64,000 bases of DNA from contig JBHLMP010000004.1 of assembly GCA_048938025.1 (NCBI GenBank), forward strand, positions 44,903 through 108,902. The letters are read 5' to 3'. Each line of letters starts with the position of its first letter. The stretch's first letter is position 1. The notes below the pieces were generated by a model. It ran no database searches. It was not told the origin of the DNA and saw only the letters and a list, made by a program, of their open reading frames with translations. This document shows positions 5,656 to 12,833 of this stretch, piece by piece. Source of the stretch: Promethearchaeota archaeon (GTDB taxonomy: Archaea; Asgardarchaeota; Lokiarchaeia; Sigyniarchaeales; SOKP01). The position numbers and the translations under genes were made by a program.

Positions 5656-8595
5656 ATGATTAAAGATCTCTCTGAGACCAAAGCTGATTTGACTTGTGAA
5701 GAATGTGGTGAACCAATAAAACATAATCAAATAGACAATAAACCTATATATTGTGAATTTTGTGGTGCTCAATATAGCTCTGTAGATTTGCGACATCCAG
5801 AAATATCACAACCGGAACAGGAAAGAATAAGATTTTCTTATACTACTGAAGAATTAAGCCAAGCAATTAGAAATCTTACCTATCAGAAAATTTATGAATT
5901 GCTGAAAGCTAATTTTTCAATCATCAGCCGTTTAAAGGACCAAGAGGATCTTAAACAATCGCAAATATTAAAACTGGCTAAAAAATTACGAAGAGCATTA
6001 TTATTTCTTTCCCTTCCTTCCAACAATACTGAGTTGCTGACTAAGACCTCAAAGAAAAAGATTGAAAATTTTTTTGAGGACTTCCAAGCAAATTTAAAAA
6101 AAAAGAGAAAAAAGCAATCCAATTATGTGCCTTATTTGACGAAAAATATCAAATTCATTTATAGATTAATCAAGGGAGATTTTGAATTCTCAACTCTTGC
6201 TAAATATAATCAGAAAGCGGTGAATAAATTAAAAACCAAATTTGGGTTTAAAATCAATGCTAAAACTAAAAACGCATTCTCTTACTATTTATCAATACTC
6301 CTGTGTAGAAAAATATATAAAATTATAACAACTCAGGGGCAGATCTTAGATTTAAAACATAGTAGAAATGAATTAACTAAGCAATATACATTAAACACTG
6401 CTAAAGATATAACTGCATTAGTTTTAAACAATTACTTCAAGGGAAATTTCTCAAAAGCATATAGAAAATTAAAAATGGAGCTCGAGATCGATTGGGTTTA
6501 CCGTGAAAGCTTTATTGACCATGTCCGCTCATTAATAAAACTGGTCTATAAATTAGCATATAACAACGGCTATACCTCTAGACTTGGAGGATTTCAAAAA
6601 TTATTTGCTGAAGATTTAAAAGAAAGTAGGTTTTTTGAAGATGACACTATTTTTTCACCCTATTTTAAAGTGAATTTAACTCTGATTCTAAGCAGAATTA
6701 TTCACTGTATTCTTAATTCATCCCAAAATTTAACTCCACTACAATCTGACCCCAGAAAATTAAATCCTACTGATAACCTAAGATCGGCAAATGAGATTTT
6801 AGATGAACTTCTTGCAGATAAAAAAATTAAATCAGAATTTTTAAAGGAGTTTTATAACCTCTCTTTAGAAGAATTTCAAAAAGAATATGAGAATTTACTA
6901 GCCAAATTAAAATCTGATATGCTCTATAAAGAAAACTTTCTATCATTCCTACAAAAACTTATAAATTCTGTTTACAAAATTACACACATCAAAAGTAAAA
7001 AATCGAATCATTCGAAAATAGAATTGGGAATTATCAAAGATCTGGCTAATTATAACTTTAATTGGGAGTCACTCAAAAAAGAAAAATCATGTTTCTACTC
7101 AGAGGAAAAAGATAAAAGATATGATATATTTACAACAGAGATTCCAGAAAATAGTCTATTGTGGCGAGTAAGGGCTTATGTTATTGGATTCTTATTATCA
7201 GATGGTTCAATAAGATATAATCCCTATGAAGTCGCAGCTTCTCAAAATTTAAAAGATAGAGACATACTAGATAATATTAAAAAAGCTTTAGGCGGAGATA
7301 TTCAAGGACCTGACAAAAAAAGTAAGTACTATTGGAGTGTATATAATAAAAGTTTAGTACTAACATTGAAGAAATATGGAATGGTCAAAGCACACTCAAA
7401 AGAACATATCGCAAAGAATCTAGTACCGCCTGATTTTATAACATTGATGATTAATGGAAAGTCAATATTGAGAGACTTTATTAGAGGATTTTATGATGGG
7501 GATGGTTGGATAACTGGTTCTTTTATAAGAGGTGATACTGGTTTCAAAATATTGGGTCCAGAAAAATTTTTAACAATAATACAAGAAATGATTTCAATAG
7601 ATGTTCCAGATATAAAATCATATATTACACCAGAAAGAAAACAATATTTTTTTATTAACAATAAGAAGTACCTTCTTTTTACTAAATCAAAAATATATAA
7701 GAAAGGATACGGTTTTTATAAGCTCTCAACTGAAGAAAAAAAGAAAGGAGAAATAAAGATTTTGGATCATCCTTGGTTAAAGATTCTTCACTTCTCGGGA
7801 AACTTAAATGCTACTAAATTCTTTAACTGGTTATATGAGGATAATGACAAATTTGATCAATATGAGATTAATGGTATAAAAATTTGTGGTACAAGGAAGT
7901 TTAGAAAGGCTATTTCTATATTAGGAGATAAAAAGAAAAGAAAAGAAAGATTAGCTCCTGATTGGAAAGATACTATGACAGAAATTATACCCAAATTAAA
8001 AGCACGATTTTATAAAATAACAGAATTAAGAGATTTAACAAATGATTTACTTCTTGAAGAATTAAGGTCCTTAGGATTAGAACATCTATATGATGGACAA
8101 AAAGCTAAAAATATGGATAAATTTCGAGAAAGATTAAAGTTTTTTGAATATCTAGATAATTTATTAGGACATTATAAAAAATCAAACATAAATTATTATT
8201 TCAGTAAAATAAATCCTCCATCGATAATCCCTAAAGATTTTAAGAGAAGTATCTATTTGATTAAAAACGGAGATATTCGTAAAAACATTAAAAGCTTCAT
8301 AATTTATGTCCTTCTTTTGAAAGATAATCCCATGAAATTTGATGAAATTCTAAAAGAACTCAAGAAATCAAAAATTTTCGATAAGAACACTCTATATATC
8401 AAGAATATTATAATAAATATCGTTGAATTAATATCATTTGAAATTATTTTTATCGAAGAACTTAAAAAACCAAGATTTATATTTAAGAATTTTAAAGATC
8501 AAGATTTATATTTAAATATTTCAAGATTAAAAGTAATTTTAGGAATAGATTTAAAAGAGATTAAATTAAAACTAAAAAAACTATATTATAAATGA
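5656..8595 (+). CDS. large free-standing LAGLIDADG endonuclease-domain protein (Zn ribbon + 3 helical repeats + two LAGLIDADG motifs + probable C-terminal wHTH)
   Basis: CEECG...CEFCG at the N-terminus; YVIGFLLSDGSI and DFIRGFYDGDGWI motifs; no intein splice motifs seen. Confidence 0.8.
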   Translation: MIKDLSETKADLTCEECGEPIKHNQIDNKPIYCEFCGAQYSSVDLRHPEISQPEQERIRFSYTTEELSQAIRNLTYQKIYELLKANFSIISRLKDQEDLKQSQILKLAKKLRRALLFLSLPSNNTELLTKTSKKKIENFFEDFQANLKKKRKKQSNYVPYLTKNIKFIYRLIKGDFEFSTLAKYNQKAVNKLKTKFGFKINAKTKNAFSYYLSILLCRKIYKIITTQGQILDLKHSRNELTKQYTLNTAKDITALVLNNYFKGNFSKAYRKLKMELEIDWVYRESFIDHVRSLIKLVYKLAYNNGYTSRLGGFQKLFAEDLKESRFFEDDTIFSPYFKVNLTLILSRIIHCILNSSQNLTPLQSDPRKLNPTDNLRSANEILDELLADKKIKSEFLKEFYNLSLEEFQKEYENLLAKLKSDMLYKENFLSFLQKLINSVYKITHIKSKKSNHSKIELGIIKDLANYNFNWESLKKEKSCFYSEEKDKRYDIFTTEIPENSLLWRVRAYVIGFLLSDGSIRYNPYEVAASQNLKDRDILDNIKKALGGDIQGPDKKSKYYWSVYNKSLVLTLKKYGMVKAHSKEHIAKNLVPPDFITLMINGKSILRDFIRGFYDGDGWITGSFIRGDTGFKILGPEKFLTIIQEMISIDVPDIKSYITPERKQYFFINNKKYLLFTKSKIYKKGYGFYKLSTEEKKKGEIKILDHPWLKILHFSGNLNATKFFNWLYEDNDKFDQYEINGIKICGTRKFRKAISILGDKKKRKERLAPDWKDTMTEIIPKLKARFYKITELRDLTNDLLLEELRSLGLEHLYDGQKAKNMDKFRERLKFFEYLDNLLGHYKKSNINYYFSKINPPSIIPKDFKRSIYLIKNGDIRKNIKSFIIYVLLLKDNPMKFDEILKELKKSKIFDKNTLYIKNIIINIVELISFEIIFIEELKKPRFIFKNFKDQDLYLNISRLKVILGIDLKEIKLKLKKLYYK

Positions 8596-8633: not shown

Positions 8634-10646
8634 TTAACCAATTTCAATATCCATCTTTTTACGTTCTTCAAGTAGCTTTTCAACAACAGAAGGATCTGCT
8701 AACGTTGTAACGTTTCCGATTTCTGTTCCAGAAGCTATAGCTTTTAAGATTCTCCGCATTATCTTGCCACTTCGCGTCTTAGGTAAATCATCGGCAAATT
8801 GAATCACATCTGGCTGAAATACAGGACCGATCTCCTGTCTTACATGCATTCTTATCTCTTTCGATAACTTAGCTGATTTTTCGACTCCTTGGATTAAGGT
8901 TATAAATGCCCAAATTGCTTGTCCTTTGATTTTATGCGGAAATGGAGCTACAGCTGCTTCAGCAACCTTTGGATGGCTTACAAGAGCAGATTCTACTTCC
9001 ATAGTTCCAATTCGATGACCTGAGACTTTAATGACATCATCTAATCGCCCAAGAATCCAATAATAACCATCTTCATCTCGTCGTGCTCCATCACCAGTAT
9101 AATAGTATCCTGGATACTTTTCAAGATATGTTGATTTAAATCTCTCTGTATCTCCCCAAACGTCTCTTAACATTCCTGGCCAAGGTTGTGCCATGGCAAA
9201 ATACCCACCTTCATTTGGTTCTGTAATTTCGTCCCCTTCTAAATCGAAAATGACTGGTTTAATCCCTAAAAAGGGAAAACAACATGATCCTGGTTTTGTG
9301 GGTGTTGCTGTAGCAATTGGTGTCATTATAAAACCCCCTGTCTCTGTTAACCAATGTACGCGTTATGCGTCCATTTTTTGCCAGTAAGTATCAACTATTG
9401 GGGCTTTACCTTTTCCAACGACTTTATGGTACCAGGTCCAAGCTTCGGGATTTATTGGCTCTCCAACAGTTCCTAATACTTTTAATGAACTTAAATCATG
9501 CTTCTTAACTGGTTCATCACCATATCTCATCAAGGCGCGAATTGCTGTGGGAGCTGTATAGAAATGAGTTACTTTATTATGTTCTACAATATCCCAGAAT
9601 CTATCTACATCAGGATATGTTGGAACTCCCTCAAACATTAATGTAGTTGCACCATTAGCTAAAGGTCCATATACAATATAGGAGTGACCGGTAATCCAGC
9701 CGATATCTGCAGTACAGTACCAAATATCACTTTCATGGTAATTAAATACGATTTTATGTGTAAGCGACGTATATAATATATAACCTGCTGTTGTATGTTT
9801 AACACCTTTTGGTTTTCCAGTTGTTCCACTTGTATATAATATAAATAAAGTATCCTCAGAATCCATTGCTTCAGGTTCGCATTCATCGCTCATCCCTTCA
9901 ATAAAATCATGATACCAAATGTCTTTATTAGTGTGGGGAACTTCTCTTCCGGAACGTTTTACTACTATGACATGCTCTATTGTTGGAACATCATCAATAA
10001 TTTGAACAACATCTGATATTTTTGGATAAAATTTCCCTGCTCTTAATGTTTCATCGCTTGTGAATAAGAGTCGTGAGTCAGAATCATCGATTCGATCCTT
10101 TACAGCTTCTTTTGAGAAACCACCAAAAACTATAGAATGAATAACTCCAAGGCGAGCACAAGCAAGCATTATTATTGCTAATTCAGGAACCATAGGTAAC
10201 CAAATGGTTACACGATCTCCCTTTTTCAAACCAAGTTTTTTCATACCATTGGCAACTTTATTGACTTCTTTTAATAATTCAGTGTAAGTATAAGTTTTAA
10301 CATGTCCAGGTTCATCAGCTTCCCAAATAAGAGCCACTGTATCGCCTTTTCCAGCTTTTATGTGCCTATCTAAACTGTTATAAGCAACATTTAGTTTTCC
10401 TCCGACAAACCATTTACCAGGAAACAATTCTGTTTTTTCCCATACTTTTTTATAAGGCTCGAACCAGTCCAGAGATTTAGCTTGTTCATCCCAGAAACCT
10501 TCCATATCTTCGATTGATTGTTTGTAAAGTTTTTTATATTCTTCTAAAGATATACCTGTTTTAGCAAATTTCTTGTTTAACTTAACAGGATCGAAAATAC
10601 GTGTTTCAGTAAGAATACTTTCCATCTTTTTGTCTTTTTCAGACAT
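8634..10646 (-). CDS. acs: acetyl-CoA synthetase (AMP-forming), interrupted by a 30-nt in-frame insertion; 660 aa if the insert is removed
   Basis: ORFs 9363..10646 and 8634..9326 are in the same frame. Motifs YTSGTTGKPKG, GEPINPEAW, DTYWQ/TETGG, YYTGDGA, GRLDD and PKTRSGKIMRR are all intact. Confidence 0.93.
9347..9376 (-). other. putative bulge-helix-bulge mRNA micro-intron in acs
   Basis: 30-nt insert AAAUGGACGCAUAACGCGUACAUUGGUUAA contains an in-frame UAA. Removal restores WQTETGG. It forms an internal hairpin and two 3-nt bulges around a 4-position central helix. Confidence 0.6.
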
Positions 10647-10922: not shown

Positions 10923-12833
10923 ATGAAAAAGTTAGATTTTCCAGACAATGATTGGAGAAAGAAATGGATAGAGAAAGAGATCACAGCAGAAGAAGCAGTT
11001 AGAAAAATTATCCCAGGGAATAGAGTATTCATAGATTCAGGGTGTGCAGAACCACAGTTATTAACTACAGAATTAATTAAACATTCAGAAACGTTGATCG
11101 ATACTGAAATTCTCCATTTTTTAACAATAGGTCCTGAAAAATATTTCAAAGATAAAGCTGAAGATCTTTTCCGGCATAATGCATTTTTTATTGGAAAAAC
11201 TCTTCGTGAGGAAATAAATAAAGGACAAGCAGATTATACTCCGATTTATGCTAGTGAAATTCCATCTTTATTTGTGACAGGAAGAAAACATATTGATGTA
11301 GCTCTTATACAGATTACACCACCAGATCCTTATGGTTTTTGTTCTTTTGGAATTAATGTTGATATAGCAAAACCAATAGCAAAATCATCTTATATAACAA
11401 TTGCAGAAATTAATCCCCAAATGCCAAGAACGTTAGGCAACAGCTTTATTCATATGAAAGAAATTGATTATTATGTTTATAATGATGTTCCATTATTAGA
11501 ATTTCATTTTGATGAACCGGATGAAATTGCTAAAAGAATAGGACAGAATCTAGCAAATTTAATCGAAAATAAATCAACAATTCATGTTGGTTTTGGTGAT
11601 TTGCCAAATGCTGCTTTAAAATTTTTAGGTGAAAAAAAAGATTTAGGAATGCATTCGCATTATATTACAGACAATATAATACCTCTTATTGAAGAAGGTG
11701 TTTTAACATGTAGGAAAAAGAATTTTCACCCAGAAAAAATTTTAACCAGCTATGCTTTAGGGACTAAGAAATTATATGATTTTGTTAACAATAATCCCTA
11801 TCTTGAGTTTTATCCCTCTGATTATGTTTGTAATCCTAGATTTATTGGAATGAATAAAAAATTGGTGTCAATAAATTCTGCTCGCCAAATTGATCTAACT
11901 GGACAAGTAAATGCTTCTACAGAAGGATATCGATTTTATTCTGGACTTGGTGAAACTATTGATTTTATGAGAGGAGCCGCTTTTTCTAAAGGGGGTAAAC
12001 CGGTTATAATTATACCATCAACATCTAGAGATGGCAAAAAATCAAGAATAGTATCTCATTTAGATGAAGGGGCAGGGATAATGTTATCTCGAGGAGATGT
12101 GCATTATGTAGTAACCGAATGGGGTGTTGCTTATCTCCATGGCAAATCAATTAGAGAAAGAGTACTTGAATTGATTTGTATTGCCCATCCACAATTCCGT
12201 CAATCACTATTAGACGAGGCTAAAAAACTAAATTATGTATATTCTGACCAAGTACTTCCATGTGATGATAATGGGAATATTTGTCTTTATCCCTTTCAAT
12301 ATGTAACTATTTATGAAACACACGATAAACAAAAGATTAGAATACGTCCTGTTAAAACTACTGATGAACCATTATTAAGAGATTTGTATTACTCATTGAG
12401 TGAGAGGGATAGATATTTAAGGTTTTTTGAGTTGAAAAAAGAATTTACTCATTCTAAAACTCAATTTGAAGTAAATATTGATTATAACAATGTTTTTTCC
12501 ATTGGAGCATTTACAGGAGAAATTGGAAATGAAAAGATGATAGGAAATGCTACTTATTATTTAAATCCTAAATTAAATATGGGAGAGTATAGTTTCCTTG
12601 TGAGAGATGATTATAGAGGCAAAGGAATTGGTGGATTTCTCTATCAACAAATAATCATTATCGCAAAAGAAAGAGGATTAAAAGGACTTTATGGAAATAT
12701 TCATATTCAAAATAAAAGTGCTGTCAGAATAATTAGAACAGGTGGATATACTAGAATTACTCCTCCAGGAAATCTTGATGGAAAAGAACTGTTCTATGAA
12801 GTCTTTTTTGATAAAGAGGATTCAACAAATTGA
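10923..12833 (+). CDS. acetyl-CoA hydrolase/CoA-transferase fused to C-terminal GNAT acetyltransferase
   Basis: DVALIQITPPDPYGFCSFG, IDLTGQV, DFMRGA and VVTEWGVAYLHGKSIRER motifs; C-terminal IRIRP...VRDDYRGKGIG (GNAT motif A). Confidence 0.9.
   Translation: MKKLDFPDNDWRKKWIEKEITAEEAVRKIIPGNRVFIDSGCAEPQLLTTELIKHSETLIDTEILHFLTIGPEKYFKDKAEDLFRHNAFFIGKTLREEINKGQADYTPIYASEIPSLFVTGRKHIDVALIQITPPDPYGFCSFGINVDIAKPIAKSSYITIAEINPQMPRTLGNSFIHMKEIDYYVYNDVPLLEFHFDEPDEIAKRIGQNLANLIENKSTIHVGFGDLPNAALKFLGEKKDLGMHSHYITDNIIPLIEEGVLTCRKKNFHPEKILTSYALGTKKLYDFVNNNPYLEFYPSDYVCNPRFIGMNKKLVSINSARQIDLTGQVNASTEGYRFYSGLGETIDFMRGAAFSKGGKPVIIIPSTSRDGKKSRIVSHLDEGAGIMLSRGDVHYVVTEWGVAYLHGKSIRERVLELICIAHPQFRQSLLDEAKKLNYVYSDQVLPCDDNGNICLYPFQYVTIYETHDKQKIRIRPVKTTDEPLLRDLYYSLSERDRYLRFFELKKEFTHSKTQFEVNIDYNNVFSIGAFTGEIGNEKMIGNATYYLNPKLNMGEYSFLVRDDYRGKGIGGFLYQQIIIIAKERGLKGLYGNIHIQNKSAVRIIRTGGYTRITPPGNLDGKELFYEVFFDKEDSTN

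Follow-up and report, generated by a model that had tools for sequence, protein, structure and literature searches.

A probable bulge-helix-bulge intron in the acetyl-CoA synthetase gene of a Promethearchaeota archaeon, with related inserts in other acetyl- and acyl-CoA genes

The intron in the cbf5 pre-mRNA of Crenarchaeota was reportedly described by Watanabe in 2002, Yoshinari in 2006 and Yokobori in 2009, and in the literature that we searched it is the sole precedent for the element studied here, a 30-nucleotide (nt) insert in acs, the acetyl-CoA synthetase gene of a Promethearchaeota archaeon. The insert, designated I5, lies at positions 9347-9376 of a 64,000-nt stretch (the window, whose positions are used throughout) of contig JBHLMP010000004.1, positions 44,903 to 108,902 of the forward strand, from assembly GCA_048938025.1 (hereafter genome G000). 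Multiple introns per gene are almost unheard of in archaea. According to the accessible part of PMC2738675, the cbf5 intron is of the bulge-helix-bulge (BHB) type, its splicing has been demonstrated and it is removed by the tRNA splicing endonuclease. The acs insert resembles it as a putative BHB intron inside a gene that codes for a protein, with a link to hetero-oligomeric EndA and a lineage-specific pattern of presence and loss (PMC2738675, same part). It differs in that cbf5, on the evidence of that part, is one gene with one intron in Thermoproteota/Crenarchaeota, whereas here metabolic genes of Promethearchaeia are concerned, with as many as five introns in one gene and seven or more sites in acs, distributed patchily over 13 carriers among 112 unique sequences; splicing is predicted here and demonstrated for cbf5. 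The host is acs and not the cbf5 pseudouridine synthase gene of Desulfurococcales or Sulfolobales, which places the insert outside the cbf5-type class.

As far as the available parts of bioRxiv 10.64898/2026.10.13.758758 and PMC11291895 go, the non-canonical BHB introns of Asgard tRNA genes are a second close system, alike in geometry, predicted enzymes, organisms and repeated gain and loss, and unlike in that the acs host RNA is a translated mRNA, which in its unspliced form ends at a stop codon, and in that codons, not a tRNA fold, constrain the exon half of the motif. Those parts of the two papers are silent on protein-coding hosts. The literature searched contained no account of BHB introns in protein-coding genes of Asgard archaea; split-gene tables in the supplements of Asgard papers could hold cases.

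The acs gene occupies 8634-10646 on the minus strand and scores 930.2 bits against TIGR02188 (cut-off 724.95) over model positions 3-628 with one internal TAA, so that it belongs to the AcsA family over the full model. We regard it as highly likely, from the sequence comparisons below, that the 30 nt at 9347-9376 are an archaeal BHB intron in the acs pre-mRNA. The predicted parts of the gene are as follows.

9377-10646, minus strand: acs exon 1, from the ATG at 10646 to ...TAC TGG CAA A, delimited by open reading frame (ORF), translation and TIGR02188
9347-9376, minus strand: candidate 30-nt BHB intron I5, AAAUGGACGCAUAACGCGUACAUUGGUUAA, with an in-frame TAA at 9363-9365; it matches an exact 30-nt alignment gap and has nine covarying variants
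8634-9346, minus strand: acs exon 2, starting CA GAG ACA GGG, with the stop codon at 8634-8636

Exon 1 codes for ACAS_N (Pfam PF16177) and the larger part of the AMP-binding domain (positions 6-321 of the 384 in the PF00501 profile), and exon 2 for the remainder of that domain and AMP-binding_C (PF13193). Two acs ORFs, 9363-10646 and 8634-9326, share a common frame, and the minus-strand DNA at the site reads TAC TGG CAA AAA ATG GAC GCA TAA CGC GTA CAT TGG TTA ACA GAG ACA GGG. Translation through it gives ...DTYWQ KMDA (stop) RVHWL TETGG..., in which the invariant YWQTETGG motif is interrupted by the insert with its in-frame TAA; excision of 30 nt, in any of three alternative registers with an identical product, yields an ORF of 660 amino acids (aa). 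The presence of the insert in sequencing data was confirmed by a Logan contig from run X1 (662 nt at depth 43.5), which spans 9178-9839 with zero differences and represents an independent assembly, not an independent sample, since X1 may be the source sample of the genome. Run X4 contains an insert-less relative, visible as a loose end at 9379, and run X5 contains near-identical pieces without cover over 9251-9470. A second copy of the insert was not found in its own genome (search up to 7 substitutions), and its exact 22-mer had 0 matches in the metagenome contigs.

The predicted BHB structure of I5 consists of the following elements.

9376-9378, minus strand: 5' bulge AAA, with the predicted cut between 9377 and 9376
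9346-9348, minus strand: 3' bulge AAC, with the predicted cut between 9347 and 9346
9379-9382, minus strand: exon strand GGCA of the central helix (H), pairing with 9349-9352 as G.U, G.U or G-C, and C-G; the A.G position is paired in only 2 of 9 variants
9349-9352, minus strand: intron strand GGUU of H, pairing with 9379-9382
9353-9375, minus strand: intron hairpin (h'), 9367-9375 pairing with 9353-9361 around the loop 9362-9366; present in the minimum free energy (MFE) fold
9383-9387, minus strand: outer helix (h), 5' exon strand, pairing with 9341-9345 as two pairs, a mismatch and two pairs; 83% of alignment cells paired in 9 variants
9341-9345, minus strand: outer helix, 3' exon strand, pairing with 9383-9387

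In register 9376-9347 the two 3-nt bulges, each split after AA, enclose GGCA/GGUU, and the hairpin AAUG-G-ACGC / GCGU-A-CAUU lies inside. H has three of four pairs (A.G, C-G, G.U, G.U), the outer helix has 2+2 pairs, and the inner stem has 4+4 pairs around a G.A mismatch and the loop AUAAC. Both flanking helices are thus present, h' as four pairs, a mismatch and four pairs, with 83% (h) and 88% (h') of cells paired across the nine variants. The canonical central helix is seen only in a relaxed sense, with three of four pairs plus A.G in G000 and four of four in loci L246 and L255. Cuts after the second bulge base on both strands give YWQTETGG and the 660-aa ORF, and at L157, L175 and L239 the BHB register is the sole one yielding the product. 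The initial annotation had described the region correctly base by base, and its statements that removing 30 nt restores YWQTETGG and 660 aa with no other lesion, that three registers give the same product and that register 9376-9347 has BHB geometry with a weak, A-G-mismatched central helix were all reproduced. It had also included a distal exon-exon stem, UAAAGCCCC/GGGGUUUUA, as part of the element; the stem does occur in the MFE fold of G000 and, by eye, is not kept in other carriers, so that it was rejected and looks incidental.

The same site was then compared among relatives. YWQTETG is uninterrupted in all 29 acs loci first fetched from relatives, and acs orthologues of the genus span 1854 nt without a stop (41 related genomes), compared with 1884 nt in G000. 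The closest relative, G012, has identical flanks minus exactly 30 nt. A pattern search over the 54 genomes of the genus recovered I5 in two, G000 and G043; in G043 it occupies the identical site and differs by a single loop change, which converts TAA to TAG. I5 was also present in 4 of the 43 metagenome loci covering the site (71 loci returned) and in 6 of the 49 GTDB genome loci covering it (69 returned), the GTDB contigs being labelled Promethearchaeota or Promethearchaeia with a few under other Asgard names; Promethearchaeati we take to be equivalent to Asgard. Loci L157, L158 and L239 are identical at I5, L252 resembles G043, and the acs contig of genome G014 stops 14 codons beyond the I5 site and has no bearing on it.

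Alignment of the nine distinct I5 variants revealed 85.0% paired cells against 31-50% in slid controls. In twelve cells both sides have changed in a compensatory way, and covariation scores 0.304; neither value was reached in 500 shuffles, while the numbers of pairs with a both-side change (4) and of further pair types (12) are not above shuffles (264/500 and 429/500). Four of the h' pairs change on both sides. A subset of five variants gave 83.5% paired cells (29-49% slid), four both-side pairs (0/500 shuffles) and a covariation score of 0.212 (3/500). For I1, another acs site, three variants gave 96.5% (26-44% slid), six both-side pairs (2/500) and a score of 0.491 (2/500). By these alignments the predicted intron structure is maintained by compensatory change, and the inserts with covarying stems that the initial annotation had proposed to seek at this site in relatives do exist.

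The acs gene of G043 contains five inserts relative to G000 and G012 (32, 33, 30, 30 and 30 nt) within ~330 nt of coding sequence. Removal of each restores the conserved protein, the first is not a multiple of three, and no other damage is present. All five fit the BHB structure in an allowed register, with 3-4 of 4 pairs in H, 5-10 in h' and 2-5 in h. The acs genes of other carriers have one to four introns, and seven sites were found overall, numbered here on the coding sequence of G012.

Position 947: acs site I1, 32 nt
Position 1037: acs site I2b, 42 or 60 nt
Position 1047: acs site I2, 33 nt
Position 1091: acs site I3, 30 nt
Position 1200: acs site I4, 30 nt
Position 1275: acs site I5, 30 nt
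Position 1520: acs site I6, 32 nt

An acetoacetyl-CoA-synthetase-like paralogue contains a further predicted 30-nt intron with a TAA, between ...SWMM and WNW..., in two genomes, G053 and G001, whose copies are distinguished in h' by two double changes from G-C to A-U. AMP-binding paralogues with stops inside were tried as additional carriers and mostly rejected, since by blastx 11 of 12 fetched loci are colinear with G000 paralogues and only L130 has a 10-codon insert. A motif-free census was also made, in which 1,026,075 nt of G043 were compared with G000 by blastn (711,552 nt aligned, ~85% identity) and indels of at least 14 nt were retained if their removal left at least 60 open codons on either side. 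Thirteen strand-rows qualified. Only three of them break the frame; all three are in G043, measure 30, 32 and 44 nt and have four of four H pairs in the BHB register. The intact G000 orthologues identify their hosts as CdhD (insert of 32 nt), a thiolase and an acyl-CoA dehydrogenase. The intron-host loci are given here.

L069:3836-3867, plus strand: intron-host locus in G043
L104 (C7:117701), minus strand: intron-host locus in G043
L123 (C24:542), minus strand: intron-host locus in G043
L065:1936-1965, and L130: further intron-host loci

Each structure was scored by counting H pairs twice and adding the pairs in the first 4 positions of h and the first 6 of h', on a geometry in which each strand runs through a helix, the 4 nt of H, a bulge of 3 nt cut after its second base, and another helix. 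For 20000 random pseudo-inserts of 30-33 nt in G000 the median score is 8, with 14 at the 99th percentile and 17 at most, and the ordinary in-frame indels of the census score 2-10. Over the seven acs sites and four other genes, 35 instances (32 distinct) were collected. H has at least three of four pairs in all of them in the true geometry, and in all 32 distinct instances the frame-restoring cuts match the BHB register. The true-geometry scores of the 32 have a median of 15 (range 10-18), compared with a median of 7 and a maximum of 13 in mirror geometry, and the true score is the higher in 30 of 32. Two I2b inserts, L177:3527-3590 (42 nt, no stop) and L254:3566-3625 (60 nt), have weak scores of 10 and are counted as introns only tentatively; intron decay, exonisation or a larger internal structure may account for them. 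I5 is, judged by these sequences, very probably one member of a family of 30-60-nt introns that occupy at least seven sites in acs and sites in other acyl/acetyl-CoA genes of Promethearchaeia.

All intron hosts found (n = 5 genes) belong to acetyl-/acyl-CoA metabolism, three of them having come from the function-blind census. Such a bias could reflect high expression, shared regulatory logic or chance.

Several observations weigh against the BHB assignment of I5. The central helix has three pairs, two of them G.U in G000, and its fourth position, which adjoins the 5' bulge and is A.G in G000, lacks a pair in 7 of 9 variants, so that the helix is effectively 3 bp long. The hand-folded structure of the initial annotation stands as far as register and geometry go, and departs from the MFE fold, which has two symmetric 2x2 internal loops instead of staggered bulges. 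Energy models disfavour the BHB fold: in G000 it comes to -3.0 kcal/mol and the MFE fold to -11.6, and in the other I5 variants the corresponding ranges are -1.2 to -6.2 and -7.8 to -12.4 kcal/mol. These are nearest-neighbour models, which penalise bulges and leave protein out of account. I5 of G000 scores 14, which corresponds to P ~0.01 against random inserts and ~0.05 for H plus h given a hairpin; it is among the weaker members of the family and unconvincing on its own, and hence is suggestive by itself and decisive only jointly with the introns of its relatives. No further G000 intron was found in the 0.71 Mb compared between G043 and G000. A genome-wide search of G000 for other genes split by BHB motifs, as the initial annotation had suggested, found 1438 ORF-fusing motifs against 1342 in the mirror control, without excess; in a refined list (209 versus 202) the top matches turn out to be normal boundaries between genes, complete with ribosome-binding site and start codon, and such an unspecific scan is mute either way on rare introns. 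The carrier counts are not independent, as metagenome and genome contigs may share source organisms, and the only RNA contig (run X19) covers 9787-10036, away from the predicted splice junction.

The enzymes that such an intron would need are encoded in the genome. G000 has two genes with an EndA domain (PF01974; C66:88427-88651 and C33:14707-14955) and an RtcB gene (PF01139; C68:33115-34422). ARAGORN predicted an intron in 18 of 32 tRNA calls, several at non-canonical positions, and the finding of just 32 tRNAs in a 97%-complete genome suggests that further interrupted tRNA genes were missed. Asgard EndA is an (alpha-beta)2-type enzyme with an L1 loop tied to broad specificity, according to the consulted part of PMC5829648, and Asgard tRNA genes are heavily interrupted, with two EndA paralogues in 44 of 60 genomes, according to that of bioRxiv 10.64898/2026.10.13.758758.

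In the proposed mechanism, exon 1 would contribute its strand of the outer helix, GGCA of the central helix and two of the bulge bases; the hairpin of 9 positions, the GGUU that complements GGCA and two further bulge bases would come from the intron. The genome-encoded (alpha-beta)-type EndA would cut past the second base of each 3-nt bulge, and RtcB would join the exons to give UGG CAA ACA GAG (YWQTETGG), with the predicted junction ...UGGCAAA joined to CAGAGACAGG. The intron would be released, probably as a circle. Unspliced RNA would yield a truncated protein of 427 aa, and since the unspliced mRNA ends at a stop codon, splicing may gate acetate activation. Anatomy, conservation, covariation, frame restoration, purifying selection and encoded enzymes make up the observed part of the case, and cleavage, ligation and circle formation are what we infer.

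Removal at the RNA level by a route other than EndA/RtcB, for example by another structure-specific nuclease and a ligase acting on the hairpin, would agree with the thermodynamic dominance of the hairpin, the poor energies of the staggered bulges and the imperfect central helix. We consider it unlikely, because in all 32 distinct instances the cuts that restore the frame would fall exactly after the second base of two 3-nt bulges 4 positions apart and mirror geometry scores a median of 7 against 15, so that the rival enzyme would have to mimic the EndA cut rule; we know of no other archaeal system with a two-bulge cut signature.

A disabling insertion, with recent decay of acs in the G000 lineage and the hairpin as mutational debris, would account for the in-frame TAA in an invariant catalytic motif and for the absence of the insert from the 29 relatives first fetched and, by pattern, from 52 of 54 genomes of the genus. 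The genome also holds many other AMP-binding paralogues. Against decay, the focal gene is the sole acs above the TIGR02188 cut-off in G000 (3.52 Mb, 88 contigs). Comparison of G000 with G043 acs over 625 codons resulted in a non-synonymous rate (dN) of 0.027, a synonymous rate (dS) of 0.57 and a dN/dS of 0.047, with 0.04-0.09 for intron-less pairs; branch-private changes (non-synonymous/synonymous) number 13/64 in G000, 10.5/70.5 in G043 and 17.2/57.8 in intron-less G012. The relaxed selection (dN/dS near 1) that the initial annotation had named as a sign of pseudogenisation is thus not seen, and a dN/dS of 0.047 at a dS of 0.57 between the closest intron-bearing acs genes indicates that they are not pseudogenes. 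Cutting every predicted intron leaves one open frame with YWQTETGG and no second lesion in 13 of 13 carrier loci, ten of them full length at 659-667 aa and the other three (L158, L252 and L255) ending with the locus. The stems covary, and G043 has five precise inserts and is otherwise undamaged. Decay is therefore very unlikely. A spliced BHB intron in an Asgard protein-coding gene, as first proposed from G000 alone, is supported by these frames and this selection together with the nine covarying variants, the sister introns and the encoded EndA and RtcB.

Translational bypass elements, such as that of phage T4 gene 60 and the byp elements of Magnusiomyces mitochondria, are likewise short hairpin-bearing inserts with stops in ORFs that do not inactivate the gene. 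Ribosomes hopping across the 30 nt could accommodate a hairpin inside the coding sequence and a stop codon early in the insert. Bypassing works at the level of the ribosome and needs matched take-off and landing codons, whereas the acs inserts have endonuclease-substrate geometry and no identical codons of this kind: I3, I6 and I5 of L157, L175 and L239 are single-register inserts with no repeated end base, and the UGG...UGG pair at I5 would swap the invariant Q for L. As BHB geometry and covariation would also go unexplained, bypassing is extremely improbable. Stop-codon read-through, a tolerated 10-residue insertion or an assembly artefact is hardly credible, despite the 30 nt being a multiple of three and the related 42-nt insert of L177 lacking a stop, since the frame is broken by the 32-nt inserts (I1, CdhD and I6) and by the one of 44 nt, all 29 relatives keep the motif unchanged and the insert recurs in an independent contig and many assemblies.

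The distribution of the candidate BHB introns was mapped on a FastTree phylogeny of 112 unique spliced acs sequences, from which rows with an ORF under 1800 nt (L158 and L252 among them) had been dropped. The 13 carriers are scattered over the entire tree, and the Fitch minimum is 9 changes for I5 (10 carriers), 6 for I1 (6 carriers) and 5 for I4 (5 carriers). G012 groups with G000 (94/75 support) and G043 lies outside, yet G012 is without I5. I5 sequence types appear by eye to be clade-specific, which would speak for old introns, precisely lost many times, rather than for lateral spread. Between G000 and G043 a single one of the 30 nt of I5 is different even though acs has a dS of 0.57, which points to constraint on the intron or to recent transfer. 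On balance we lean towards a wider proposal, that Promethearchaeia have a family of 30-60-nt mini-introns spliced by EndA/RtcB in acetyl-/acyl-CoA genes, up to five per gene, at positions that are old, genus-wide and either precisely lost many times or laterally spread, so that the closest prokaryotic relatives of eukaryotes already had 'genes in pieces', processed by machinery ancestral to that of eukaryotic tRNA splicing.

If these introns are spliced, archaeal mRNA splicing would be recurrent in the lineage nearest eukaryotes and not a one-gene curiosity. Gene callers would split or discard such genes in Asgard metagenome-assembled genomes and so distort metabolic reconstructions, here of acetate activation, of CdhD in the Wood-Ljungdahl pathway and of enzymes of beta-oxidation. 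Sites that are fixed but patchily occupied would offer a tractable system for spliceosome-free intron gain and precise loss, and splicing would raise the matter of its order relative to coupled transcription and translation in archaea.

Assemblies often break near the intron-bearing part of acs. Two G043 contigs (the ends of C82 and C39) overlap by 55 nt just after I5, and the hole in run X5 falls in this part of the gene; coexisting intron-plus and intron-minus alleles may be the cause. A run of N occurs in a coding region of G000 (C20, near 34200) with several in-frame length differences from G043. A short C-terminal acs fragment, which may be a gene remnant, was found at G000:C51:13967-14200 (minus strand; model positions 548-628, internal TAA stops), ~40 kb from the full gene, and a comparable fragment is listed in G043 (C48:37814-38071). 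The divergent neighbour of acs, 10923-12833 (plus strand), fuses acetyl-CoA hydrolase/transferase domains (PF02550, PF13336) to a GNAT acetyltransferase domain, and its product could plausibly acetylate and so regulate ACS. The adjoining 979-aa ORF, 5656-8595 (plus strand), has no Pfam match at E <= 0.001; it is lysine-rich, with a zinc-ribbon-like N-terminus and a stretch resembling, by eye, a LAGLIDADG motif.

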